Notes: generated by a model from the sequence alone, not told the origin. A DNA stretch of 64,000 nucleotides from Cyanidioschyzon merolae (GCA_000091205.1 AP006487.2); one strand, 5' to 3'. Shown: positions 23,945 to 43,489, counted from the first letter of the stretch. Program-made: numbers and translations.

Positions 23945-25147
23945 TCAGGCGCTTGGCCACCATCGTTGGCCATCTTTTCCGAGATCGTGAAGAACTGTTC
24001 CGGCCGGAGCCGGAGGTCCCAGAGGGTTCGGTGCCGTTGATGGATCAATAGGAAGCAGCGAACACTGGGCAATCTGTTGAAGCAAGTGATCAACAAGAAC
24101 GAGCGCGACCATGGCTTCTACCATCGGAACAGCACGAGGCAACACACAGGGATCGTGTCTGCCCTTCGCGCGAAGGACTACTTGCTCACCGGCACGCGTC
24201 ACTGTATTCTGTTCGCGTGATATCGTAGAGGTCGGTTTGAAGGCGACGCGACATACAATGTTCTCTCCGTTCGAGATGCCTCCTTGAATACCTCCGGAAC
24301 GGTTCTCCCTCGCTCGCGTCCTACCATTGCTATCTATATAGAAGGGATCGTTGTGCTCTACACCCGTTAGCAAAGTGCCCCCGAAACCCGAGCCTACTTC
24401 AAAGCCTTTCGATGCTGGAAGCGACATGAGGGCTTTTGCGAGTTCAGCTTCGAGCTTGTCAAACACCGGTGATCCTAGCCCGGCAGGGACGTTCCTTGCA
24501 ACGCATTCAACAACACCGCCGACACTGTTACCTGTTCGGCGAATTTCATCGATAAGCTGGATCATTTGAGATGCTGCCTCTGAATCAGGGCAGCGAACGA
24601 TGTTCGATTCGATTTGCTCGTACGAAACCACGTTGGGATCAATATTCGCTGCCTCGATATGCTTCACGCTTTTCACGTAGGCAAGAATTTGTGTTCCCGC
24701 ATATGTCCGAAGGATCTTTTTGGCAATGGCGCCTGCAGCAACACGTCCTATTGTTTCCCGAGCTGATGAACGTCCACCGCCAGCGACGGCGCGTATGCCG
24801 TACTTTGCATCATAGGTTGCATCCGCGTGCGATGGTCGATAGCTTACCTTCATTGCCTCATAATCCTGAGACCTTTGGTCTGTGTTTCGAACAACGATAG
24901 CTATAGGTGTACCCATAGTGACACCGTCGACGACGCCAGAGAGGATCTCCGCTTCATCTGCTTCGTTCCGTGGTGTCGTGAGCCTAGACTGTCCCGGTCT
25001 ACGCCTGTTTAACTCAATCTGAACGTCTTCTATAGTAAGTGGCAGCCGTGGTGGGCAACCATCAATGACAACTCCGACTCCACCACCGTGGGATTCACCA
25101 AAAGTCGTTATTCGAAATATCCTCCCAAAAGAGTTGCCGAGACCCAT
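23945..25147 (-). CDS. Chorismate synthase (AroC), 401 aa from the conserved start
   Basis: '[33 protein letters not shown]' is the canonical chorismate synthase N-terminus, and the fold is conserved throughout ('[10 protein letters not shown]…[10 protein letters not shown]…'). The ORF is open for 44 more codons upstream to 25279. That could be an N-terminal extension or non-coding. Confidence 0.88.
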
Positions 25148-26389
25148 GAACAACTCACGAGCGCAAACCAGCTTCCCCGGAAGCGATCTTCCATTTCTGT
25201 GGAGAGGAACTCGGTAGTCTGTTGCTGTCGCCGCTGCTGCAGGCCGCCCAGGGCAGGCAAGAGGGGAAAGAACGAACATGGAAGCAGCGGGGCGTCGGTA
25301 CTGTCTACTAGAATGCCTCAGCTCGGGAGACGCCTTCCTTCCACCACGAGCGACTTATTGGACCAGTCAACGACTTTGGCCTATGCGTGGCACAGATTGC
25401 TTGTCTGAAAATCCTCTCACGAATACCCTGACACACGAAACTTCGCTTTGGAAAGAGTGGTATGACCAAACACATTGCGAGAAACATTTTATGTCCGTCC
25501 GCAGTTCGGCGGCGATGACTACACCCATATCAGATTAAAATATGACGGGTCCCCGCGCGCAGGCGTGTCTGCTGAAGCTTCAGTTTGTTATGCGCGTCAC
25601 AAACAGCTGCATTCGACGGCTTTTTCTGTGCCTGATGCCTTTTACCCGTCACCTCAGCGGCTTTAAATATGCCAGACTCCTTTCAGATCCGTTGTCAGCA
25701 AGCGAAGGAGTTGATGGCAGCGTGAAAGTCTCGATTTCGCTGCTTCCGGCTGTTGTCGACGCATCTCATGTATAGCTAGTGTTTGCGATCCACGCTTCGC
25801 TTATGATGCTCATGTACTTTGTATACAACCTCGTTGCGTTCGTCGTAGTAGAGGCACTTGGTTGTGGTTGTCTAATCCCCTAGGTATACCACATCTCGTT
25901 CTCTGAGGTCCGTCGTGTGACGCATGCACGCATGCTGCATCGCTCGACATATGCCTGTCACCGGTGCATCGGAAGGCTGGCCACGACATCATCCTTCGTT
26001 CCCGTGACAGGCACCGTACTCTAGAACCATGTTCTTCTTCTCGGACACGCCTTGGCGAGTACTCCGCCCACCGCAAACTCGAGTGCACGCTTTCCCATTC
26101 GATCAAAGGCTCGGTCAACGGGATTTTGCAGTCGATGAATCAAACACCGCAAGGAAAATCTAGCTTGGAGATCAAGTCGTGAACTCTGGATCCATCGACT
26201 CGCACATCGTGGAAAGCTGTGGCGTTCTTTGCAATGGAATCGATCCCTGCGATGACTTAGTCCCGACTCCAAGGCTCTTTTCTGTATAAACAGAAGCATC
26301 GGGAGCCTCTGGAAGCATACTGCGTTGCAGCAATCACGATGCTGCTGTCGAATCTTATTTTATGGATAACCAGGAAGAGAGAAGAACTT

Positions 26390-29799: not shown

Positions 29800-31211
29800 T
29801 GATGCAGTGTAGAGTACAGACTATAGACGAGCTGCCTGGTGGATCTGTTCTTCACTGAAAAGTGCATGGAGGTCTGCATTCCTCCTTCAGCTCAGTTATG
29901 CAACAGGACTCAGATGGCTGAGGAACTCTGAAACAACCAAGAATACGCGCTCCGCGCCAAAAGCCGATATTCTCGAAGACTGGATGCGGTCAATGGTAGA
30001 AAACCACCCGTTGATCACCTGTTCTGGAAGGAAATAGCGACGATAGTAGCCACCATGGGCGACTCTGTTTCCCACCAGCTTGTTCGTGTGGTGCTGAAAA
30101 CTCTAGGGTACAGTCGCTAAAGAGAGTCCGGGTCCACGCATGGCCATCTTCCACCGGCACCAAAATGGCAGCGTTCCTGGAACTCAGCGATCAGTATGAC
30201 GTCCACGGACGTCGGTTTGTTTTTTCCCAGTCGATGCGGCTTCCTTCGGACGAGGCGGTCGGTGCGTTTATGGGTATCCTCGGAGATGGCGTCTGTGCTA
30301 TGTACGAACGAACTTGTAGAGAACGAGCATGTCATCAACTGTTCGAGCTGCAGTGGATTCTTTTGGCGGCCTCAGTTTCGCTCATAGACAAGACACATAC
30401 AAGAGCAGCAACGAATTCGTCGAATCACTGAAGACGGTTCTCTGACGTCTTCTGACAACCCTCTGTTGGACAACGTGACATTTCACGATTCTTCTTGCGT
30501 TCGAGTCTCTGCAGATTCTGTTGGAATAGAGCCGCTTTTCATTCCTCCGTACGCGCCGTAGTTTAACGCCATCGAAGAAGTCTTTCTTATCGTCGAACGT
30601 GGTGATCGCTCCACTGGGCGAACCGCTGAAGCTTTGAGCATATGCTGACACAGGAGCATACTCCTTCGTTGTTTTTCAAATCCTTCTGCCATCGGGAAGG
30701 TCCTCAACTGAGCTCAAAAAACAAGTGCGTTCATTTTAAAAAATAAATAATCCAAGGAACAGTTATGGACATTGAAGTCGAGGATTCTAGAGGCCTGGTG
30801 TCGCCAGGTTCGAAAAAGAAACGAAAAATCCTCTTCTCGCCGACCATCGAGCGAAGGACAGCATATGCTGAAAAAAAAGAGAAAATGAGGTGAGATAGGC
30901 GAGAAAAAGTGTATACCCGACGGGACGATGACGAGACTGTAGTGGCACAGAGGGCGCGAGTTCGAGGACTCCTTGCACAAATGAGCTCCACCAGCTGCAG
31001 TAAATGCTTGGAGTCCGTGAACCGAGATTATAAGGCTGGCACCACTATCAGACGATGTCTGGTGCTATAGACGAGACCCGCGGAGCTGACGCGAGCCAAA
31101 TTTGTGGCGCAGCCTCGTAGGGTCAAGGTATACAAGTAGACGCTGACGCCGACAGTAGGGAGCGGGTCCAAAATGTCTGGAAAGCGTCTACGAATGGATA
31201 TGTACATATCT
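29800..31211 (+). mobile_element. Composite decayed repeat, copy 5
   Basis: ~97% identical to copy 7 over ~780 bp (29850–30645 vs 58530–59320). 'PVDHLFWKEIATIVATMGDSVSHQLVRVVLKTLGYSR' (HTH_Tnp_Tc3/IS630-like). 'GIEPLFIPPYAP*FNAIEEVF' (DDE C-terminal motif with a stop). Tail unit from 30716 with 'MDIEVEDSRGLVSPGSKKKRK' and a degenerate RuvC-III region. Confidence 0.6.
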
Positions 31212-31447
31212 TGTATTGTAGCGGAGCATTTCCTCTTCCACTGACGATGTATGTGTAAGAACTGTGTTCGCACGTTGCTGTTCATCACAACATCCCGTGC
31301 AAGAGTCGTAGGCCGCAAATGAGGTGATCGCAGTTGTATACAAATTTGTGTAATATCCACAAAAGGTCGCCTGCGCACGCACCCGACTGGGAATTTGAAC
31401 GTCGCGCTTCGTTTCCTGTAATACACCAGGATCGTTTCGAACTTTTC

Positions 31448-33121
31448 ATGGGTATTCAAGGCCTCTTGCCCATCATAAAACCAGTCTGCTTCCGCAGACA
31501 CATATCCGACTTTGCTCAGAAGCGGGTCGGCGTAGATGGCTACAGCTGGTTGCACAAGAGTCTCGCTGGCTGTTGTATAGCGTTGGACCGGAGTAATGGC
31601 ACGACAGCTCCACGCGTAGAGCGTACAGAACGTTTTGTTGAAAATTTTCTGGGTCGCGTGCGTATGCTGCAACACTACGGCGTCTCGCCTTTGATTGTTT
31701 TCGACGGGGGAAGAATACCTGCTAAAAGTGAGACGGAAAAACGTCGAGCAACGCTCAGAGCAAAGAATCTGGAGCTTGCTACGCAAGCGCTGGCTCGTGG
31801 TGAAATAGAACTCGCTCAGAGCTTTTTGCAACGCTCTATCGACGTGACCCCTGAAATGGCTTACGAAGTTATTAAAGCTCTTCGGAAAGAAAATTTTGAT
31901 TTTCTCGTCGCGCCGTATGAAGCAGACGCTCAGCTGGCGATGCTTTCTAGAGAAAATCTCATCGACCTCGTTATCACTGAAGACTCAGATTTAATCGTCT
32001 ATGGCGCAAGGAGTATTCTGTTCAAGCTAGATCGCTATGGCTACGGTGACCATGTCGAGCAGAGAAGCCTCGGAGCAGTCACAAATCCGAGTTTACTGAC
32101 GTTCAATCCCGATATGCTTCTCTATATGTGTGTCCTCGCAGGATGTGATTTCTTCGCTGGAATTCCCAGGACAGGAATCCGCAGGGCCCATGCCCTTGTC
32201 CAAAAGTATCGCAAACTAGACAACATTTTGCTCGCTGTGCGAAGCAAGAGACTGTCCGAGGATTATGAAGCGTTCGAGCGAGGCTTTCGAAAAGCAATCA
32301 CTGCTTTCCGTTACCATCGCGTATTCGACCCCAGAACTCGTCAGGTAGTGCATCTGAATTCGCTACCATCAGCGATGCAAAGCGATGAACTAGACGGTAT
32401 TCTTGGGCCGGCTATAGAGGCTGGAATTGCAACCAGGATCGCCGCAGCCGACCTATGCCCCATCCAGAAAATGCCATTCGACAAAGGTGTCCCAGTTGAG
32501 GACGTTCAAAATTCGATTATCGAGCATCTGCCTACCAGCAGACGGGCGCTTTCGCGTGCAGGCGGGCGCGTATTCTGGGAGCAAGTTCAAGTTGAACTGA
32601 TGCAAGCCTCGGCCCGAAACCGGCCGCACCAATCGCCGACTCAGGTGCCGCTGCCAAAGAAAAGAGCCGCGATTGGGGTAGGCTCACGACCAGTCTCGAT
32701 TGCGGTCTCCGCCGAAGAGCGCACGACCTCGATTCCTGAGCTAGACGTGCAGCCGGGTCCAAGCACAGCATTTCATGAATTAAGCGTGGGTGAAGTCGTG
32801 ACTTTTACCCAGAGTCAGGTTAGTGAACGCTCAGTTCATAGAGGACAAGGCCCCGCGCTCTCTGAAGACCAGCCGCTCTGCTCTCTATGTTCTTCCCTGA
32901 ACTCTCAACCAGCAACTGCTACACACATATTGAAAGAGCCTGGCACTTCTCCTTCCAACGAATCACGCATCCGTTTCCCTCAAGAAACTTCGGGAAGCTC
33001 GCCTCTCGTGGAGTGTACCCCTGAAGCTTCGTGTGCCAGCGCATACAGTCCTTCCGTGGCATCCACGACGTCTCCGTGGCGGACAAACTCACCCGTTGTA
33101 TGGCACGAAACCCATGACTAG
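31448..33121 (+). CDS. EXO1: Exonuclease 1 (XPG/Rad2-family 5'-3' exonuclease), 557 aa
   Basis: 'MGIQGLLPIIKP' XPG-N start; conserved XPG-I region 'VAPYEADAQLAMLS…DLVITEDSDLIVYG'; H3TH region; divergent Ser/Pro-rich C-terminus. The ORF is open from 31334, but the conserved Met is at 31448. Confidence 0.85.
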   Translation: MGIQGLLPIIKPVCFRRHISDFAQKRVGVDGYSWLHKSLAGCCIALDRSNGTTAPRVERTERFVENFLGRVRMLQHYGVSPLIVFDGGRIPAKSETEKRRATLRAKNLELATQALARGEIELAQSFLQRSIDVTPEMAYEVIKALRKENFDFLVAPYEADAQLAMLSRENLIDLVITEDSDLIVYGARSILFKLDRYGYGDHVEQRSLGAVTNPSLLTFNPDMLLYMCVLAGCDFFAGIPRTGIRRAHALVQKYRKLDNILLAVRSKRLSEDYEAFERGFRKAITAFRYHRVFDPRTRQVVHLNSLPSAMQSDELDGILGPAIEAGIATRIAAADLCPIQKMPFDKGVPVEDVQNSIIEHLPTSRRALSRAGGRVFWEQVQVELMQASARNRPHQSPTQVPLPKKRAAIGVGSRPVSIAVSAEERTTSIPELDVQPGPSTAFHELSVGEVVTFTQSQVSERSVHRGQGPALSEDQPLCSLCSSLNSQPATATHILKEPGTSPSNESRIRFPQETSGSSPLVECTPEASCASAYSPSVASTTSPWRTNSPVVWHETHD

Positions 33122-33345: not shown

Positions 33346-34320
33346 ATGGAAAGTGTCTTTACTAGAGCCTTCGTGTACAGCGTCGTCTATCAACTTCTAT
33401 TTTTCACTGCCTCGGTTGTGCTCGGCACTGACAAACTAACTGACTTCGCTGGTGGCACGAACTTTTTCCTCCTGGCCCTCTACTGTTGCTTGCAGTGTGA
33501 ACGGAGGACGTTCCGCCTTAAAGTTCTCACAACGCTCATCAGCGTTTGGGCGTTTCGTTTATCGTGCTTCCTTTTGTACCGCATTATACTGTGGTCAGAG
33601 GATCGGCGTCTGAAGGAGTTCCGCGCTAGCATTTGGAAGCTAGCGAGTTTTTGGTTCGTTCAAGCGGTATGGGTTTGGGTCACATCGTTCCCCGTGTTGG
33701 CACTCGGCTCGGAAACCTCTCAAGCACTTCCGGTCAAGCCCTTGTGTACTCTGGATTACGCTGGCTGGCTTCTCTGGCTTGGCGGTCTCCTGTTAGAAAC
33801 CGTGGCGGATTTTCAAAAGTTACAACACAAGAAGAGAGCACCGGAACTGAATAAAACTCCTTGGTGCACGGATGGCGTCTGGCGCTTCTCACGGCACCCG
33901 AACTATTTCGGGGAGCTATGTGTTTGGTGGGGAATATTCCTATCCAGTTACGCTGGAGTCGAGGACTCATTCCCGTTGTTCGTTGCCGCAATCGCATCTC
34001 CTGTTTTCGTTATGTTGTTGCTGCTCTTTGTCAGCGGCATGCCTTTGCTGGAACAGTCTATGAATCGAAGGTACCAAGGAAATACGAAGTTTGAGAATAG
34101 AGACGGACGTGAAACGGAAGCTCAAAGACTTGCAGAAGCATTCAAGGCGTACAAGAACTGCACTAGCCCGTTGATTCCGCTACCACCGTTGGTGTACGCA
34201 TCACTGCCGACAGTCATCAAGCGAACAGTTTTCTTCGAGTGGAAGATCTACGAGGCGGAATCAGCTCCTAACGAGTCCCAGAGCGACCGCTCCCGCGATT
34301 CATCGAACGCTCGCATGTAG
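33346..34320 (+). CDS. DUF1295 / steroid-5-alpha-reductase-like polytopic membrane protein
   Basis: Multi-TM ORF with the C-terminal '[11 protein letters not shown]' motif characteristic of the S5A-reductase/ICMT/DUF1295 fold. Confidence 0.6.
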
Positions 34321-35070
34321 ACCGGGACCCAAACAGTACCGAAGAAATCCCGTTTGGGTAAGGTGAGAAAGCGCAAGTCGAGATCATCGGTGACCAAGTC
34401 ATAACCCGAAAATGGTTTTATTACGCGCTACCCGAAGCCTTTACATTCAAAAGTTACAAAGCGTCTCATATATTTCTTTCCTTTTCGGTCCTTGAAGCCT
34501 TCCGGGGGAATCATTCCAAACCATCAAGTATTGTTACAAAATTGTTGTCTCTGTTTCATAGCGAGTTTTTCCATACGCGTTTTCCAGTGATTTCGAAGAC
34601 TACTTTGTCTGCGTTATGCACAGACAAACCTGAGCTGGCCTACTCATAGCGAAACTACAGAATGTGCGGAAGAAAGCCGCCGTCCGGTCGCTCTGCAGCG
34701 AGTCGATGCACTAAGTTCGTCTCTTGTGTACATCGGCCCCAGTGCACATCTCTCTGAGTGGTATATCAAGACATGCCACATCGTTTCGCTCTTGTCAACG
34801 AAAATGAGGATGAGTATGCGTGGCAGAGAATGCGAAAGTGTGCAGTGACACAATCGCTGGGCTAAAGCATGCTGGCAATGAACGTGTTGTAAATCTTCTA
34901 TTTCTGCGAAAAATCATCGACGACATGCAAATCGAAGTTCACCGCGTGCATCGACGACACCGTCGTTGAGGCCGACTTCGAGAGTCACGCCGATACCTGC
35001 ATGCAGAGCGGCTCATCCGAGGAGCGCGTTTCCTCACACATGGAGGCGCGTGATAGTGCTCCAACTGCAT

Positions 35071-35964
35071 CTAGTATGCCATCATTGAGGCTGACGGCGA
35101 CGGCGACGGCGACGGCGACAGCGAGGCTGACATATGCACACGTATCACGTCCGCGTCCGCCAGCGCATCTACCACGTTCAGACGCATATGGTGGCTCCCC
35201 GAGTGCATCGACGACATCATCATCGACGGCGACGGCGAGGCCGACATGTGCACACGAAGCAGCTCATCCGCCACAAGTGCATCATCTAGGCTCAGGCGCA
35301 TGTGGTGGCTCCCCGAGTGCATCGACGACATCATCATCGACGGCGACGGCGAGGCCGACATGTGCACACGAAGCAGCTCATCCGCCACAAGTGCATCATC
35401 TAGGCTCAGGCGCATGTGATGGTTCCCCGAGTGCATCGACGACATCATCATCGACGGCGACGGCGAGGCCGACATGTGCACACGAAGCAGCTCATCCGCC
35501 ACAAGTGCATCGTCTAGGCTCAGGCGCATGTGGTGGCTCCCCGAGTGCATCGACGACATCATCATCGACGGCGACGGCGAGGCCGACATGTGCACACGAA
35601 GCAGCTCATCCGCCACAAGTGCATCGTCTAGGCTCAGGCGCATGTGGTGGCTCCCCGAGTGCATCGACGACATCATCATCGACGGCGACGGCGAGGCCGA
35701 CATGTGCACACGAAGCAGATCATCCGCCACAAGTGCATCGTCAAGGCTCAGACGTGAGCCATATAAACCATACGACGAAGAAGTTGTTGTCGTTGTGGTT
35801 GTTGGCGAGGCCGACGGCGACGGTGAAGGCGACGGTGAAGGTACTAAGATCGGATGCAAGACGGTGCGGTCCTGATTTATCCACAACGGCAGAGCAAGCA
35901 CGTTGCAACTGCAGAGAACAGTGCAGATCACGAACACACAGATGATATTCTTTGCAATCGACAT
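35071..35964 (-). CDS. Putative secreted Ser/Met/His-rich tandem-repeat protein
   Basis: Signal-peptide-like start 'MSIAKNIICVFVICTVLCSCNVLA'. It is followed by about 5.5 copies of a 38-aa unit 'HMRLSLDDALVADELLRVHMSASPSPSMMMSSMHSGSH' encoded by the 114-bp tandem array. ORFs are open on the opposite strand too (a low-complexity effect), so the strand call rests on the signal peptide. Confidence 0.4.
   Translation of the reverse strand: MSIAKNIICVFVICTVLCSCNVLALPLWINQDRTVLHPILVPSPSPSPSPSASPTTTTTTTSSSYGLYGSRLSLDDALVADDLLRVHMSASPSPSMMMSSMHSGSHHMRLSLDDALVADELLRVHMSASPSPSMMMSSMHSGSHHMRLSLDDALVADELLRVHMSASPSPSMMMSSMHSGNHHMRLSLDDALVADELLRVHMSASPSPSMMMSSMHSGSHHMRLSLDDALVADELLRVHMSASPSPSMMMSSMHSGSHHMRLNVVDALADADVIRVHMSASLSPSPSPSPSASMMAY
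35128..35760. repeat. 114-bp tandem repeat array (~5.5 units)
   Basis: Units start at 35190, 35304, 35418, 35532 and 35646, near-identical. Preceded by (GACGGC)n at ~35095–35130. Confidence 0.9.
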
Positions 35965-37476
35965 TTTGCTGTGCTGTAACTTACGTGCCGTGTGCGCGCC
36001 CTTTGTAAACTCCAACCACTGTAGTATATATGTGCGTTGCACGCAGCCGCTCAATAATTACGCGGCGATCGCGAGGCATGCGTGCTGTCCCTCCCGTACA
36101 GCGAACAGCGCACTACGCCAGGATCCGCCACGTGTGGATCCGGAGGCTCGATGCGCGGGGGAATCCTGGTGAGTGAATCGCGGCGCGGGAGAAATCGCGG
36201 CGGACACGTGGCAGCGCTCTCCTCCACGAATGCAGCTGGCCGTGCAGCAGATGATCCAAGTGATCTTTTAAGTATTTAGACATAATGGTCAGCTTCATCA
36301 CTGTTCCCTGCGAAGGCCCTGCAACAATACGTAGATGGGGAGAACAAGCATATTTGCAGACGAGATCTCGTACGTCGAGTAGTCCCGAAAACTATAAAAG
36401 TCTTCGTATGGAGCATTTATGGCAATTGTAAAGGACCTTTCTGTGAGTGAGTGAGTGGGTTCAGACCTGCGTAACGCAGTACCACCTCTCGGGGAACAGG
36501 TAGGTTGCTTTCCAGTGAGTGGCGCATTGTGATGTAAAAGGCTGGAAGCTTCAGTTAGCGTGCGCGAAACTCAAGAGACTTCAGATCTGATAAAACACGA
36601 CTTTGCAAGGTAAACGACACGTATTTGCGCCTGAGAGAAAAGCCACCCGCATAATCATTGCGCTGAAAAATTGCCGATACACGACATATCTCGGGGGCAC
36701 TGCTCCCGGAACAGCACCTCCTGGAGGCCAAGACCGGTGGATTCTAGGGGCTGAGTCTGTCGAAAGCATTCCATACGAAGATGCGTTAGGCTTTAGATGC
36801 GCTGCGTCCAGGTAAGGCAGCCGCACCGCAACCTAGATGGCGGCAGAGATCGTTAGGATGCCTGGAGCATCCGATTGCAGCTTTGGGAATGCTTGAAGTG
36901 GACACTAGCACATGCGTGCCAGCGGCTAGGCCTCAAGACAGTGATTTGATGTTGCCATATGAAATAGTAATTTCCTATACTTCGAAAGAAAGCCGCTATC
37001 CTGCAAGTTTTACGCCTCATCTTCCACAGAAACGAACGCGTCTCTCCAATGGCTCAGTGAGTTAGTTCTTCTTCGCATTCTTTTAGAGTATAGGTCATTT
37101 TGCACGCCGCTCCGTTCGACAGCATGGAGCAACGTCTTGCGAGGAAGCAGCAACGCTGATTAACAGCCAACGTGACACGCAGGCATCGAGGCCATACCTC
37201 GGTCTCGACCGCCGCTAATGGTTTTTCTGTCGAATGGCTTCTCGTACCTGTATACTGGCCAGTTTCCGACGTTGCAGCACACAACGCCGCGGAACAGACG
37301 TCCGTCAAGGCGACTGATGCATGAATACGAAACAGTTGCTTCGCAATGTTGGGCAATGGCCGCGATGCAAAATCTTCCAGAAACAACTCAGCGGTAGTAA
37401 AGAAAAGGAAGATCCTGCGAGTCATAAGACGAACTGATTCTCTATAACCTCAAGCCTTCGTTTTGGCTGTTCGAAC

Positions 37477-38184
37477 CTACTGTGGTTTGGTACGGACCGT
37501 TATAGGGCCCTCAATCTTCGTACAGCAGCTGAGGCGCCAGCTGTCCGGCGCTTGCTTATTCTCGAATATTCGAGCTTCCCGCCAGCCACGGGGATTTGTG
37601 TTATACTGGCCCTCAGTGATATCGACGATGCATGTGCCACATTGGCCGCCACCGCCACAGTTTGTTAGCTTGCCTCTCAAAGTGTACACATCGATTTTGT
37701 TTTCAAGCAAGACCTTTCTCAGGTTTGAACCCACAGGGGCTTCGAGGACGCGCGGTTCGCTTTTGCCCTTTTCATAGACGGTCACCTGCACCTTCTGAAC
37801 TGAGCCAGCTGGCGTCCATGAGAGAAGCAGATTATGTCGTCTAGGTCTCAAGCAAACTTTGTTATTTTGACAGTAGCTGGAGACGTGCTGGGAACGCTTT
37901 CCGGGGCGGCTCTCTACGAAGAAGCGCAATGAGGGTACACCTACGGTAATAAACGAGGACTCGACCCTGCTGCGGGTGTCCATTCTGAAAGTTCCAGGTT
38001 CCAAAGTTTGTAAAACGGCTGTGTTCGTCCCTCCGTGCCCGGTCTGCAACATGTACTCCCGCTTCCGAGCAACGCAGTGCTTTAGCCTCAGGAGTCCCAG
38101 CCGGCGTGTACTCGTCTGCCGCGTCCGCTCTGCGCGACGTCGCCGATAATGAAGGGCTACGCGCGCGATTTCGCATGACGGCAA
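37477..38184 (-). CDS. Adrenodoxin-type [2Fe-2S] ferredoxin-like protein with Arg-rich N-terminal extension (possible mitochondrial presequence)
   Basis: C-terminal domain has 'CGGGGQCGTC' (C-X5-C-X2-C) and a later 'RLSCC'. This matches the vertebrate/ISC-type ferredoxin cysteine spacing (adrenodoxin 'CEGTLACSTC…RLGCQ'). The N-terminal 120 aa are R-rich. Confidence 0.55.
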   Translation of the reverse strand: MPSCEIARVALHYRRRRAERTRQTSTRRLGLLRLKHCVARKREYMLQTGHGGTNTAVLQTLEPGTFRMDTRSRVESSFITVGVPSLRFFVESRPGKRSQHVSSYCQNNKVCLRPRRHNLLLSWTPAGSVQKVQVTVYEKGKSEPRVLEAPVGSNLRKVLLENKIDVYTLRGKLTNCGGGGQCGTCIVDITEGQYNTNPRGWREARIFENKQAPDSWRLSCCTKIEGPITVRTKPQ

Positions 38185-38309
38185 ATGGTGGGCGCAGGAT
38201 AAAGCGTTCGGCTTTCAGTGAAGGTTCAGAGCCCGACGCTCGCACAAGCACTGTATAGCAGTTTTCTCTGCGTGTCGCGCCAGCTACGTCAGTGTATCAT
38301 CTCCAACCG

Positions 38310-38910
38310 AGTCACAATAAAACGGGAGGGGGCCTGTTCGATATCTCGAGCGAACACGCTCAAGTAGGGTTTCCTTCCCACTTGCGCCAAGACCAGTCCT
38401 CACAGGCTCTATCTGTGACTGCCTCTGTTTCCTCTCTCTTATCTCCTGCTGTAAACACGCGAGTCGTTCATGCCCCTCCAGCTCCGTAGTCAGCAGTCGA
38501 AGGGTGTTGATATTCGCGTTAATGTCCGGATCTGGGAGCTTCCCGCCGCTGACGACGCATTTCAAGCGCAGGCGGGAGGGACGATCTTCGCCTCACTTGT
38601 CTTCCGCAGCGTCTTTGCATGCATGCTTGACGCGCCCAGCGCAACGGTGGCAGTTGACTGCGGTCAGGTGCTCCCACATGACCACCATAACGCGTCCAGA
38701 TCAGAGCGCCGCATGTAACTTTTGAACGCTTGCTTCCTGGCTCGATACATGCGATAGACGGGTCCACGTGGGCTCCACTGCATGCCCTCATTCGTTGCGA
38801 TGCTCGGTGTCGTCCCAGAAGATCACGGGCATCTGCTGGGCGATCTCCTGGACGTGTACTCTGTTAGCTGTGCACGCAAGCCCACGCTGCTCCAGTCGAT
38901 ACGGGATTTG
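38310..38910. repeat. 601-bp dispersed/direct repeat, copy A (upstream of Spo11)
   Basis: ~98% identical to 43959–44559 with identical boundaries ('AGTCACAATAAAACGGG…CGATACGGGATTTG'). Not TG…CA-terminated. Confidence 0.9.
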
Positions 38911-40593
38911 AGAAGCGCAACAATGTCCATGAATAATCAAGGGCCAAAAGAGTTATCCAAGGTAAACAACGAGCCGGGAAATTCCGATTCGTCTACGCTA
39001 CCTTTTTCCAATTCGTTGACGCACGCTCCACTGGAACCGTCCGCTGAGGTGAATCCGCCTCGAGTCCAAAACCCGTTCCGATGCAAACACAAGAAGCGGA
39101 AGCCTCTGGGTGTAAATTCAAGGGCTTCATCATACTACCGCGGAGTATGGTTGCGCCTACGGCTGTTAAGAAATGAGAATTTGTCTTTCGAATGGAATAG
39201 ATGAGATAACGTGGGAGCATCGGTAACCTTTGGCATGGGGCGTAGAAGAAGTCGTCAAGGGAACAAGCAGACAATATCCGTCGTCAGCCTAGCAGCGCGA
39301 ATTTCGGCGCTCATGAGTTGCCATGAAGCAGCAAGATCGAAACCTTTGAGACGTTCTATTTGAGAATGCTGTGCGTAATGAACGGGGAAGATCGACGGTC
39401 TGAGATTATCATGTGGAAAATGAAAACGGTTACTGCACGAACCCTTATTCAAGAGCGTCGCAAATCATCTTGACTCCGGTGACGAATCGAACTCTAGTGA
39501 CCACAATCTGAAGGAGTTACGAAGAAAGGACCACCCGAAATCCTCAAACGACTTACGCATCCATTACTTCTCATGACTGCGCTAGGAACATTAAGTCTGG
39601 AAATCGAAGCAGAAGGTCGGAAAATACTTCGAAAGGCATGAATAAGGCGGGCAGCTTGGTACACCATTTTAATCCTAAACTGGTGGTAAGCATTCAAAAT
39701 TGTAAATAGAACTGCACTTTTGAGTGCCATTTCTTGGAAATGGTACTGGAAGGAAGAACTGTTAATACATGAAGCTTCATCACAAGACTGCTTGAACAAC
39801 CTTTGCGGGCCGTTTCCGATGCTGAAAAGACGCGACGGTCCCGCTCTAAAGATAAACCAACGTCATGGATGGCGTGAAGTCGACCTTGAATCTATGGTCT
39901 CTGTGCGCGGTCGAGACGACCGTCTCGTGGCAATGCAGACTAGGTATCTATCCGAATTACATGTTTTCAAAAGAAAGAGCACGGAGCTTTCCATAGAATT
40001 TCCAGAACGCTTTTTTTGAAAAACTACAAAAAACCATTTTCCCAGCACGGGAGCATTTACAAACAGAGTCCGGGCTCGATTACGCTAGCCTGTTGACGCA
40101 CATCTGCACAAGTGAAACGCTGTAGCGTTTTCCATACACTGGTGCGTTATTTTGTAACACAAAGTCTTTTACTCACTGCTGACGCGATCATAAATTCTTG
40201 GAATTATATCACGTAAGGTCTGGCATCTCACAATACCAAAACATATTTAGTCTTGTCGCGCAGCTCCGCAGCATCAAGCTCGAGTCCGCATGGCGCTCTG
40301 GAATAAGTTCTCTTGAACGTTTGCTTGCTCTTGAAGTCAGTGCAACTCTTAGGCTGAAGCGCGTTCCAAGAGGGAATTTATGGTGGCTGCATACATGCAC
40401 GTAAAGGATCCTGATTCATGGCTCGATCAAGGGCATCATTATGCCCAGCGGGCATCACTGGCGCCACTGGCGGGAGCGACACGCTGATGCGTGTAGGTTG
40501 ATTTCGGAGCACGCATATGGCAGTCCATACGTGCGAGCGGCGCGCTGAGCTGCTCTTAATCTTCTCGCGTGTTGCTGGTATCGACGAAGACAC

Positions 40594-41679
40594 ATGGACA
40601 GGTCGCCTCTAGAGAAAATAGAAGGGCTTGCACTCCGGATACTAAGCAATTTAGATATAGTGGGTTTGTCTAAAGAATGGGCAGCTGCTGTCCGCATATT
40701 GTGTGTCTTGCACCGGATCAGATGCATAGAATGGCAGCAGTATGGACCGTTTGCCGTATGTAACCAGGGAAGTTTTACCTTTCGTGACCTTTTTTACCTC
40801 AGCAAATCTGACGAGGTCCTTAATCCTCTTGGTGCAGGGACAAGCGCTGCTTATGCTTCTTCCCCATTTCGGGAGAAACTCTCAGTTCGAAGCACCCGCC
40901 GCGGCCTGATGCTGCTCGAAAAAGTCTTTCAAGAACCAGAGTTGCGGTACCAGCTGGGTGCGCTTCCTATGCCGAAGGGCATTCTATGGGCGCCGTCAGG
41001 ATTCGTTTTACAATGGAGCCCAAACAGGGATGTCCACCATGAACTCGAACTCAGTAGCGTCGTTCCGGTGCCGCCAGAACTTGGTAGAGCGAGTACAACC
41101 TTTCGCTTACGGCTCCACGAAGCGCACTTTGGGAACCCGAATTTTGGAGCAAAGCTCCGAGCAGTGTTGGTCGTGGAGAAGGAAACAACTTTTCGAGCAC
41201 TGCTGAGGGGCATCCATGATCCCCCTGGTAAGTTTCTTCGCTACGCGCAGCTAAATAGAGTAGCAATGATTAGCGGCAAGGGTTACCCAGACCGGGCCAC
41301 AAAGGTGCTCGTGCGGTATCTCGCAAAGACGGAGGGAATTCCGGTTTTCCTGTTGACCGATTGTGATCCGAACGGTATCGCGATTGCGCTCCAGTACGAT
41401 GGTGCAACAGAACGCATCGGCGTTCCTCTTCATGGCCCCGAAAACGCTGGCTTTGCAGCACTTCGTCTACTTGTTGATCATGACCACAGTCTGTTGAAAC
41501 AGCTCCAACGTCGAATCACTTGCATGGACGGCATTGGAGCCAGCCTGCAGCCGCCACTAGCATGGATGGCTGCGACGGGATACAAAAGCGAAATCGAAAG
41601 TTTGAGCAATCCCGACCTCACTGAATTCGTCATCCGTGCACTCAAGCAAAGACTCAAAGTGTACTCTGTGCACAAATGA
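40594..41679 (+). CDS. SPO11: Spo11 / topoisomerase VI subunit A-like meiotic DSB protein, 361 aa
   Basis: Catalytic-tyrosine motif 'FRDLFYLSKSDE' (Spo11 'RDIFY'); TOPRIM glutamate 'VLVVEKETTFRALL' and DxD 'LLTDCDPNGIAIAL'. Confidence 0.85.
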   Translation: MDRSPLEKIEGLALRILSNLDIVGLSKEWAAAVRILCVLHRIRCIEWQQYGPFAVCNQGSFTFRDLFYLSKSDEVLNPLGAGTSAAYASSPFREKLSVRSTRRGLMLLEKVFQEPELRYQLGALPMPKGILWAPSGFVLQWSPNRDVHHELELSSVVPVPPELGRASTTFRLRLHEAHFGNPNFGAKLRAVLVVEKETTFRALLRGIHDPPGKFLRYAQLNRVAMISGKGYPDRATKVLVRYLAKTEGIPVFLLTDCDPNGIAIALQYDGATERIGVPLHGPENAGFAALRLLVDHDHSLLKQLQRRITCMDGIGASLQPPLAWMAATGYKSEIESLSNPDLTEFVIRALKQRLKVYSVHK

Positions 41680-41752: not shown

Positions 41753-43489
41753 CTAATTTGCGGACGGGTGATAAGCTTCAGCAAGACACAAAAGTCTTTC
41801 AGCTGCTGTCGCCAATTCTTGCCGCGACCAAGGATCGTGCGGCAGATTCGGCAGGCAAGCACGACACCAGAGTTGCAATGCCCAAGAATGGATATCGGCT
41901 CCGGTGCTGCGAGACTGTTCCAGCCTCGTCCTGCAATGCAGAAAATGCACGAAACTTTTCCCTTGATCATCGTGTCTCTCACCGTGAGCTGCATACCGTC
42001 GAATTTCGCGTGGAAATGGATGCGGTAGCATTAGGACCGTCTTTGATTCAGAAGTAAAACTGCTTTTTTGATTCAAAAGCTCATCTATGGAGGCGGTGTC
42101 CAAGGCACGGCAAAAGTTGCTGAGAGCCTCTGGTAAGGTAGACTCATCATTCGCAATAGGATGCTTGACGAAGCCAGGCAGCCGTTGTTTCAGTCGCATA
42201 CACCATCCCTTATCGACGAATTGCCGGAGCCAGCCTGCCGTGGATAGATTGCAAAGATCGAAGTTCTGCGTCGGTACGTCATTGCTCCCGGCAGAGTTCC
42301 TAAACAGCGAAAATGGTGAAAATCCGGCCCGCAAATCGAATATGCAACGATGGCGAAGGCCCAAAAGGTTACCGCTCATTGCGACTCGAAGCCTATGCTC
42401 CAGCGGATGGGCGTCCAATATTCTATTCACAGCTAGCGCGGTGGCAACACTCGCAGTCCAGCCAAACGAATTACAAGTAAGATCCTCGAAAGACAGGCCC
42501 CGTGCATCTAGCGTCCACAGCCGTTCGCGTTGCGTATTCCGCAGATTCCTCGCACGAACAGGCAAGTATGCGATGTGATCATTTTCCCCCGAAGCACTCG
42601 ACGTGTACAAGCTGCTAACAAGTAGCGCCTCTCCAATTTGCCCCACATTGACATCCAGCTTCGGATCAATGGAAAAGATAAAAAAATTCTTTTTCGTGCC
42701 GAAAAGATCCGAAAGTTCTTCAACGAGCCCTGATAATACACCACCATTCCCTGCGTGCTCCAGGGACCCATGGATGTCAAATCCCGTGAGAGAATCACAG
42801 GTTTCCGCGAAATAACGTACTGCATCCAGGAGCTCTTCGGATTGTTTTTTGCTTTGCACGGCATCGTAGCCCCTTTGAAATAACTCTAGGTCGCGAACAA
42901 ACTGGTTCGATAATGGTGTGTCTGCGATATCGGGAATTCTGGTTTCAGCAAACGTGGTCGAGGATGCCTTTGTAGACTCCAGATCGTGCAGCAGAGTCTG
43001 AGTTCGAATTTTTGACCGACTACTCAGGGGGAACGCTTGGAAGTCTGTCCAGTGCCGTACACTTTCCTCGAAATTATACGCGTCCGGTGATTTCACCGTT
43101 CCGGCCTGTCGATCAACCTGAAAAGCATGCCTTCTGTCATGTTGGCTGGAAGAGAGGCGTTCAGTCGGACCCTTCCATAACGTCTTCGAAATTGGATCTT
43201 CGTGCGGTTCGAGTGCCCTGCTGATAGGAGCTTCACTGCAATCAAGTGAACAGTGATCCAGTGCAACAAGTCTCGGCACGACTTGGCCAGCAGTAGGTCC
43301 TTCATCTGGCTCCCAGAAAAACTCCCGACGCGCTGCCCAAAACCTTTCCTCGACAGACGAGAGACATTCGTGAGAAACCCCACCACTCGAGACCAGAGTG
43401 CTATTGTAATATAAGAGGTTCCAAAAGTGTGACCCGCAGTAGCTTGCAGCTTCTCCCAGCTGTACTACAACAGAGTTTTTCTCTACCAT
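41753..43489 (-). CDS. Misato/DML1-family tubulin-like protein, 578 aa
   Basis: N-terminus 'VVVQLGEAASYCGSHFWNLLY' matches the Misato segment-II/tubulin-like motif ('EIITLQLGQ…NxxGxHFWN'). Size fits the family. Convergent with Spo11, with stops 73 bp apart. Confidence 0.7.
   Translation of the reverse strand: MVEKNSVVVQLGEAASYCGSHFWNLLYYNSTLVSSGGVSHECLSSVEERFWAARREFFWEPDEGPTAGQVVPRLVALDHCSLDCSEAPISRALEPHEDPISKTLWKGPTERLSSSQHDRRHAFQVDRQAGTVKSPDAYNFEESVRHWTDFQAFPLSSRSKIRTQTLLHDLESTKASSTTFAETRIPDIADTPLSNQFVRDLELFQRGYDAVQSKKQSEELLDAVRYFAETCDSLTGFDIHGSLEHAGNGGVLSGLVEELSDLFGTKKNFFIFSIDPKLDVNVGQIGEALLVSSLYTSSASGENDHIAYLPVRARNLRNTQRERLWTLDARGLSFEDLTCNSFGWTASVATALAVNRILDAHPLEHRLRVAMSGNLLGLRHRCIFDLRAGFSPFSLFRNSAGSNDVPTQNFDLCNLSTAGWLRQFVDKGWCMRLKQRLPGFVKHPIANDESTLPEALSNFCRALDTASIDELLNQKSSFTSESKTVLMLPHPFPREIRRYAAHGERHDDQGKSFVHFLHCRTRLEQSRSTGADIHSWALQLWCRACLPNLPHDPWSRQELATAAERLLCLAEAYHPSAN

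Follow-up and report, generated by a model that had tools for sequence, protein, structure and literature searches.

A 114-bp tandem array on the minus strand of Cyanidioschyzon merolae chromosome 5 encodes a candidate wall protein of the diploid phase

The 64,000-nucleotide stretch of DNA analysed here (hereafter, the window) belongs to chromosome 5 of Cyanidioschyzon merolae strain 10D and contains, between the genes CME068C and CME070C, an array of 114-bp tandem repeats that forms part of a minus-strand gene for a repeat protein of 297 residues. We regard this protein, with a probability of about 0.6, as a lineage-specific (glyco)protein of the diploid phase that is extracellular or belongs to the cell-wall matrix. 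From its N-terminus to its C-terminus, it would consist of a signal peptide, an (SP)5-T7-S3 module, 5.5 units of 38 residues, and a short (SP)n tail. The diploid stage of this alga was recognised only recently, and the gene is a concrete candidate for a component of its largely proteinaceous, acid-proof wall. The gene model appears to be present already in the 2026 re-annotation of the genome, as the hypothetical protein CMX029C. The gene is seemingly highly expressed, strictly diploid-specific, secretory, and without homologues, and the host alga is genetically tractable.

The window has a GC content near 51%, and its ORFs are densely packed and free of introns. The genes around the array were fixed by exact protein matches: they encode a chorismate synthase (23945–25279, minus strand; BAM79293), a DUF1295 protein (33346–34320, plus strand; BAM79296, CME068C), a 2Fe-2S ferredoxin (37480–38052, minus strand; BAM79298, CME070C), a TopoVIA-like protein (40594–41679, plus strand; BAM79299, named CME071C in PMC3914683), and a hypothetical protein (41753–43489, minus strand; BAM79300, CME072C). 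With the flanking accessions placed, BAM79297.1, which is CME069C, therefore falls between 34320 and 37480, namely, in the interval of the array. Several other features of the surroundings were recorded. The TopoVIA/Spo11-like gene CME071C is 4.6 kb distant from the repeat gene, and its expression amounts to only about 3–6 TPM in those samples of the PMC13353863 table that were covered. The 2.4 kb between CME070C and CME071C (38185–40593) is without a gene in that table (rows 588 to 589), and a 140-aa ORF at 38782–39201 on the plus strand is called in six JGI/ENA/Logan records (P0073–P0078). A 123-aa ORF on the minus strand (37057–37425), lying where the promoter of the repeat gene is presumed to be, is given as a ‘hypothetical protein’ in several metagenome records (P0079–P0082) and probably arose because gene callers made for prokaryotes were run on eukaryotic contigs. 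Also probably spurious is a 267-aa ORF with a TTG start (31028–31831, minus strand), which is antisense to the 5′ part of the XPG/exonuclease I gene CME067C (31334–33121, plus strand).

Tandem Repeats Finder located the array at 35110–35751, with a period of 114, 5.6 copies, 94% matches, and no indels. In register with the minus-strand ORF, there are five full units of 114 bp, or 38 residues (RLSLDDALVADELLRVHMSASPSPSMMMSSMHSGSHHM; 35185–35754, minus strand), with pairwise identities of 95.6–99.1%, and a degenerate sixth half-unit (RLNVVDALADADVIRVHMSAS; 35122–35184, minus strand) that is about 62% identical to the full units. The array of about 5.5 units described in an earlier note on this DNA was borne out by these results. 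A 40-nt core of the unit occurs five times in the window when up to two mismatches are allowed, and no occurrence was found in shuffled windows. Two features are seen among the units. One is that the central units are the most alike (98–99%), while the edge units are diverged, which fits the earlier suggestion of recent expansion or concerted evolution. Another is that adjacent units have variants in common; units 3 and 4, for instance, both carry GAT at column 14. A homogeneous centre, diverged edges, and variants shared by adjacent units together are the usual signature of unequal crossing-over, and the array has probably been expanded and kept homogeneous through unequal recombination between units.

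The related contigs used for comparison (L001–L020) are derived from hot-spring metagenomes and are 97–99% identical. Those that span the array carry 1.5–2.5 units and others break within it; the contigs are short-read assemblies, which must collapse 114-bp units of 97–99% identity, and these suspiciously low unit counts are no guide to the copy number. Most of the metagenome contigs end inside the array (L003–L009 and L019), which is an assembly breakpoint, and several database ‘proteins’ (P0046 and P0084–P0088) are chimeras that start in the repeat gene and continue into unrelated sequence. The array is flanked by two short (SP)-encoding microrepeats, both detected by Tandem Repeats Finder. 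One is a (GACGGC)n microsatellite of 5.3 copies at 35093–35124, encoding (SP)n. In Yellowstone-type metagenome contigs, its length varies in steps that keep the frame, all of them multiples of 6 bp: 6 bp in two loci and more than that in three loci. For the other, a 12-bp repeat of 2.2 copies at 35816–35841, no length variant was found among the related contigs.

The repeat-protein coding sequence is complete on the minus strand (35071–35964), as judged from the ORF listing, codon usage, and synonymy: it begins with an ATG at 35964, which has an A at position −3, and after 297 codons it ends with a TAG stop at 35071–35073. Its translation yields RLSLDDALVADELLRVHMSASPSPSMMMSSMHSGSHHM, in agreement with the 38-residue minus-strand repeat described earlier. 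Residues 1–24 (MSIAKNIICVFVICTVLCSCNVLA; 35893–35964, minus strand) are, from their hydropathy, a predicted Sec signal peptide. Their best 19-residue Kyte–Doolittle mean is 2.7, and V-L-A occupies positions −3 to −1; we guess, following the −3/−1 rule, that cleavage would take place after VLA. The hydrophobic N-terminal leader that had been claimed is thus present. A short linker (residues 25–41) is followed by residues 42–64 (PSPSPSPSPSASPTTTTTTTSSS; 35773–35841, minus strand, including the 12-bp microrepeat), which form an (SP)5-ASP-T7-S3 module and are likely, from their composition, to be an O-glycosylation segment of the mucin/HRGP-like kind. After YGLYGS (residues 65–70), the five copies of RLSLDDALVADELLRVHMSASPSPSMMMSSMHSGSHHM occupy residues 71–260 and the half-unit RLNVVDALADADVIRVHMSAS occupies residues 261–281. 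The C-terminal tail (residues 282–297, LSPSPSPSPSASMMAY; 35074–35121, minus strand) is Ser/Pro-rich and is partly encoded by the (GACGGC)n tract. The earlier placement of a Thr/Ser-rich tail after the repeats was mistaken: the Thr/Ser-containing module lies between the leader and the array.

Each 38-residue unit is composed of an acidic Leu/Ala-rich segment (LSLDDALVADELLRVH) and a subsequent Ser/Pro/Met/His-rich segment (MSASPSPSMMMSSMHSGSHHM). The peptide LSLDDALVADELLR occurs four times, and one variant of it, LSLDDALVADDLLR, is also present; LSLDDALVADELLR is predicted to be tryptic and proteotypic. Two (SP)4–5 blocks are found in addition to an SPSPS in every unit, Pro accounts for 7.4% of the residues overall, and about 10% of the protein consists of (SP)n modules outside the units. 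Both these and the T7S3 block resemble typical O-glycosylation modules and may serve as such. A sequence scan of the mature product found no Lys, no Cys, and no N-glycosylation sequon. The product is also without a hydrophobic C-terminus, and it therefore has no GPI-anchor signal.

Two other explanations of the locus concern its coding. One is that the plus-strand ORF at 35001–35945 (945 nt, 314 aa), probably CME069C, is the real gene, the minus ORF being an accidental antisense frame; no other ORF at the locus is as long (314 aa versus 297 aa for the minus ORF), and CME069C is annotated in RefSeq (BAM79297.1). Another is that the array is a non-coding minisatellite, possibly contained in a diploid-specific non-coding transcript, and that both ORFs are by-products of a stop-free unit; if the period is divisible by 3 and the units lack stops, long ORFs on both strands follow automatically. 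According to the earlier note, every plus-strand frame is open across the array. This is not the case: the frame of the ORF beginning at 35001 is the sole plus frame open through the array, with no stop, and the other two contain one stop (at 35417) and five stops.

The codon usage, the substitutions, and the fate of the two ORFs among strains bear on both explanations. With a codon-usage model trained on 13 genes of the window, the minus ORF frame scored best of the six frames (0.093 bits/codon over its whole length and 0.142 within the array, as compared with 0.09–0.14 for known genes); its margin over one antisense frame was modest, and the plus ORF frame was not at the top of the six and was clearly below the minus ORF. 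Among the units, eight departures from the consensus were found at seven variable columns, and seven of the eight affect the third codon position in the minus frame. In the minus ORF, six of these eight differences are synonymous, where a fraction of 0.244 would be expected (P = 0.004); in the plus ORF, one of the eight is. Similarly, 11 strain SNPs were found in the non-repeat parts of the ORF, seven of them at position 3, and 6/11 are synonymous in the minus ORF versus 2/11 in the plus ORF; the two substitution sets are small (8 and 11), and two sites are common to both. SNP density by itself is not informative, since it is no lower within the ORF than in the flanks. All related contigs have an intact minus ORF, whereas the plus ORF is broken in four independent ones: its start is lost in L001 and L008 (35002 T>G, ATG to AGG), and a premature stop is present in L002 and L019 (35797 G>A, which is synonymous in the minus frame).

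The minus strand, on which the earlier note had translated the repeat, is the coding strand, and selection acts in the minus frame; the plus ORF is judged not to be the conserved coding frame. The product of the plus ORF is a low-complexity sequence of Thr, Ala, Ser, and Pro, without a leader and without a match to a Pfam family, and we regard a plus-strand gene as highly improbable. The non-coding explanation draws some support from the lack of homologues in the protein searches described below. However, the excess of position-3 and synonymous differences is specific to one frame, a canonical leader lies in the non-repeat part of that frame behind an ATG with A at −3, the strains conserve the minus ORF, whereas the plus ORF is decaying in them, and no Rfam family match and no tRNA were found at the locus. 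A non-coding array is, in our view, very unlikely.

Published expression data were used to place these ORFs among the annotated genes. According to PMC13353863 (2026, Plant Cell), strain 10D is a wall-less haploid, and the diploid of the life cycle is cell-walled; 10D was re-annotated there with diploid and haploid RNA-seq, by which 219 genes were added, and strand information was kept both in making the libraries and in counting the reads. In its Data Set S8, the genome order is CME068C, CME069C, CMX029C, and CME070C. CME069C (BAM79297.1) is a hypothetical protein with no signal peptide and 0 TM; its TPM values are 156/159/153 in the diploid, at most 1 in haploid MS1 Ha3, and at most 0.2 in 10D, and its log2FC values are 8.1 (2n versus Ha3) and 10.2 (2n versus 10D) (PMC13353863). 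CMX029C, a new model that is also hypothetical, carries SP(Sec/SPI); its TPM values are 1026/1116/1072 in the diploid, 3.3/3.0/3.5 in haploid MS1 Ha3, and 0.2/0.8/0 in 10D, with log2FC values of 8.6 (2n versus Ha3) and 11.7 (2n versus 10D) (PMC13353863). The adjacent genes CME068C and CME070C are not phase-specific (PMC13353863).

Three features connect these models with the two ORFs. One is length: the TPM ratio of 6.86 and the CPM ratio of 6.60–6.66 (from logCPM) give a length of CME069C relative to CMX029C of about 1.03–1.04, and the only ORFs longer than 123 aa in 34321–37479 are the plus ORF of 945 nt, without a leader, and the minus ORF of 894 nt, with a strong leader, the length ratio of which is 1.057. 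Another is the leader, which accords with the published signal peptide of CMX029C. The last is the order: the left coordinates (35001 < 35071) match the table order of CME069C followed by CMX029C, and the table order was found to be positional on chromosome 1. Because the length ratio, the signal peptide, and the table order fit only this ORF pair, CMX029C is very probably, by elimination, the minus repeat ORF. By the same reasoning, CME069C (BAM79297.1) is probably the plus ORF 35001–35945, an older model that took the longest ORF and thereby the wrong strand. Neither of these two ORFs, nor a 133-aa plus ORF, had an exact match in the protein collection.

The plus-strand explanation can also appeal to the strand-specific and diploid-specific reads of CME069C, at about 156 TPM (PMC13353863). 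Nevertheless, CME069C has 6.7–6.9 times fewer strand-specific reads than the signal-peptide model CMX029C, and the approximately 13% of reads on it may reflect library leakage or genuine antisense transcription. Two of the checks proposed in the earlier note, strand-specific RNA-seq and SignalP, speak for the minus-strand ORF and its leader if CMX029C is the minus ORF, with about 1,070 TPM versus about 156 TPM in the diploid and with the published SP(Sec/SPI) (PMC13353863). CME069C is, on this evidence, a probable antisense mis-annotation in RefSeq. It was likely picked, as the longest ORF, in the 2004–2007 annotation, which had no EST to guide the choice, the gene being silent in 10D, the haploid strain that was sequenced. 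This likely mis-annotation was retained by the 2026 re-annotation.

At the level of protein databases, the repeat gene is restricted to Cyanidioschyzon. Word-indexed homology searches with the minus or the plus ORF each returned only one chimeric metagenome fragment, derived from the same gene. A HMMER scan of 1.84 billion representatives returned the same fragments and weak matches, with no credible homologue among them; the weak matches (P0089–P0098; E values of 5e-8 to 8e-4, 16–39% identity) were rejected as unrelated TPR-like and RCC1-like proteins with a period of 36–38 aa. The metagenome scan found only two loci, both close relatives, and no divergent orthologue. A PDB sequence search with the repeat protein gave nothing meaningful, and a repeat of this architecture and composition is undescribed in the searchable literature. 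The Pfam family PF22321 Zona_CL2 (zonadhesin cohesin-like) was also rejected: each repeat weakly matches profile positions 81–118, and the whole protein passes the 26-bit cut-off, at 32 bits, only because these weak matches add up, no stretch reaching it alone. The Pfam matches to AMPK1_CBM and others were likewise summed repeat artefacts. In single-sequence AlphaFold predictions, a beta-solenoid-like stack was found in one of five models, with a pLDDT of 68.9, the other four being at 38–50, and a Foldseek search against the PDB gave no match at E ≤ 0.001 (best E 0.07, TM-score ≤ 0.22). AlphaFold over-predicts solenoids for perfect repeats. With the low pLDDT in four of the five models and no significant Foldseek neighbour, this fold was set aside as unreliable.

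The signal peptide would send the repeat protein into the secretory pathway. If CMX029C is the repeat gene, it would be silent in the wall-less haploid, including 10D, and strongly transcribed in the walled diploid; this on/off expression parallels the presence and absence of the wall, and an assignment to the wall or matrix is therefore favoured. The earlier guess of a surface or cell-wall protein gains indirect support from the same pattern, the expression of CMX029C being limited to the walled diploid (log2FC 8.6 and 11.7). In PMC13353863, 35–50% of the secretory-protein genes differ between the phases, many such genes being specific to the diploid, and a largely proteinaceous wall with 50–55% protein is cited. 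From these data and the modules described above, we infer that the repeat protein is secreted, glycosylated, and localised to the wall.

The composition of the units raises another explanation, namely, that the repeat protein is mainly an extracellular metal buffer whose Met/His clusters would hold soft metals, such as Cu(I), in the wall. It would protect the diploid in metal-rich acidic springs, and such a role could coexist with a structural one. Met and His account for 11.4% and 7.4% of the repeat protein, respectively, as compared with 1.9% and 2.4% in 13 neighbouring genes. Each unit contains MMM, M-x-x-M, HM, and HH clusters: there are one MxM, one MxxM, three HM/MH pairs, and one HH per unit, and 5 MxM, 5 MxxM, 16 HM/MH, and 5 HH in the whole protein, as is typical of copper-binding Met/His-motif proteins (the Ctr1 ectodomain, CopA/PcoA, the CueO Met-rich insert, and SilE/PcoE), which have such clusters. 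The Met thioether remains a metal ligand at low pH. In CueO (PMC11494321), CopI (PMC13308877), and human CTR1 (PMC8867124), Met-rich and His/Met-rich segments recruit copper, and the units have a likeness to them. On the other side, the evidence consists of composition and short motifs, and the His residues would be protonated at the external pH of 1–2 and unable to coordinate metals. No relation to metal-binding families was found with Pfam, PDB sequences, or HMMER, and no copper-family Pfam domain (Ctr, multicopper oxidase, SilE/PcoE, and others) was found in the repeat protein at E ≤ 0.01. None of the neighbours (the DUF1295 protein, the ferredoxin, and the TopoVIA-like gene) is a metal-homeostasis gene, the expression tracks ploidy, and nothing on metal binding or on regulation by metals was found for C. 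merolae in a literature search. A primary function as a metal buffer is consequently considered rather unlikely.

Within the preferred assignment to the diploid wall or matrix, the Met/His repeats may give the wall a chemistry specific to an acidophile, in place of a role that is structural alone, a proposal that we regard as improbable. Two options can be envisaged. The repeats might act as a soft-metal trap, in which Cu(I), Ag, or Hg would be held by Met thioethers that still work at pH 1–2. Alternatively, they might form a fixed polycationic layer: at pH 2, the 22 His and 12 Arg residues of the mature protein would be charged and Asp and Glu largely neutral, and such a layer would help to keep out protons and metal cations. 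If true, this would be a new, lineage-invented solution to extreme acidity.

Finally, the repeat protein was compared with known systems. It has a likeness to the beta-solenoid functional amyloids CsgA and FapC in the AlphaFold model, which would stack each 38-residue unit as two strands, and the top Foldseek neighbours of that model are beta-solenoids, albeit non-significant ones. It differs from them in that the pLDDT of 69 was reached in only one of the five models and in that the best Foldseek values were those given above.

A further comparison is with copper-recruiting segments. The MxM, MxxM, and HM/HH clusters recall the Mets motifs and His-Met clusters of the Ctr1 ectodomain (PMC8867124), the Met-rich domain of CueO (PMC11494321), and the His/Met-rich region of CopI (PMC13308877), and the clusters are predicted to be extracytoplasmic and probably lie in a flexible, Ser-rich context, as in those segments. 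Unlike Ctr1, CueO, and CopI, the repeat protein has no transporter, oxidase, or cupredoxin domain, no homology to them, and no copper-related neighbours, and the external pH of about 1–2 would disable its His ligands.

Among the diploid-specific secretory proteins of Cyanidiophyceae described in PMC13353863, there are FAS1-domain proteins, a lysyl oxidase, and the cupin CMA024C. The repeat protein, if encoded by CMX029C, resembles them in having a Sec signal peptide and an expression of about 1,000 TPM in the diploid and near 0 in the haploid. It differs from them in having no recognisable domain and no orthologue detected outside Cyanidioschyzon. Since the mature protein lacks Lys, it cannot be a substrate of the lysyl oxidase.

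The remaining comparison is with the (SP)n hydroxyproline-rich glycoproteins (HRGPs; extensin-AGP superfamily) of green algae. Woessner and Goodenough reportedly described, in 1989, such a wall glycoprotein of Chlamydomonas reinhardtii, the zygote-specific ZSP-1. The repeat protein is without sequence homology to the HRGPs, its (SP)n modules cover only about 10% of it, and its bulk is a Met/His/Asp/Leu-rich unit of 38 residues that has no HRGP counterpart; the likeness would be a functional analogy, the closest known to us. Like the HRGPs, including ZSP-1, it has a predicted signal peptide and (SP)n modules, is repetitive, and is confined to a single lineage. Furthermore, if CMX029C is the repeat gene, its expression would be limited, as that of ZSP-1 reportedly is, to a walled diploid stage in a unicellular alga that in its other stage has another wall or no wall. 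We place the repeat protein, as a candidate, with the secreted, lineage-restricted tandem-repeat proteins of cell walls.
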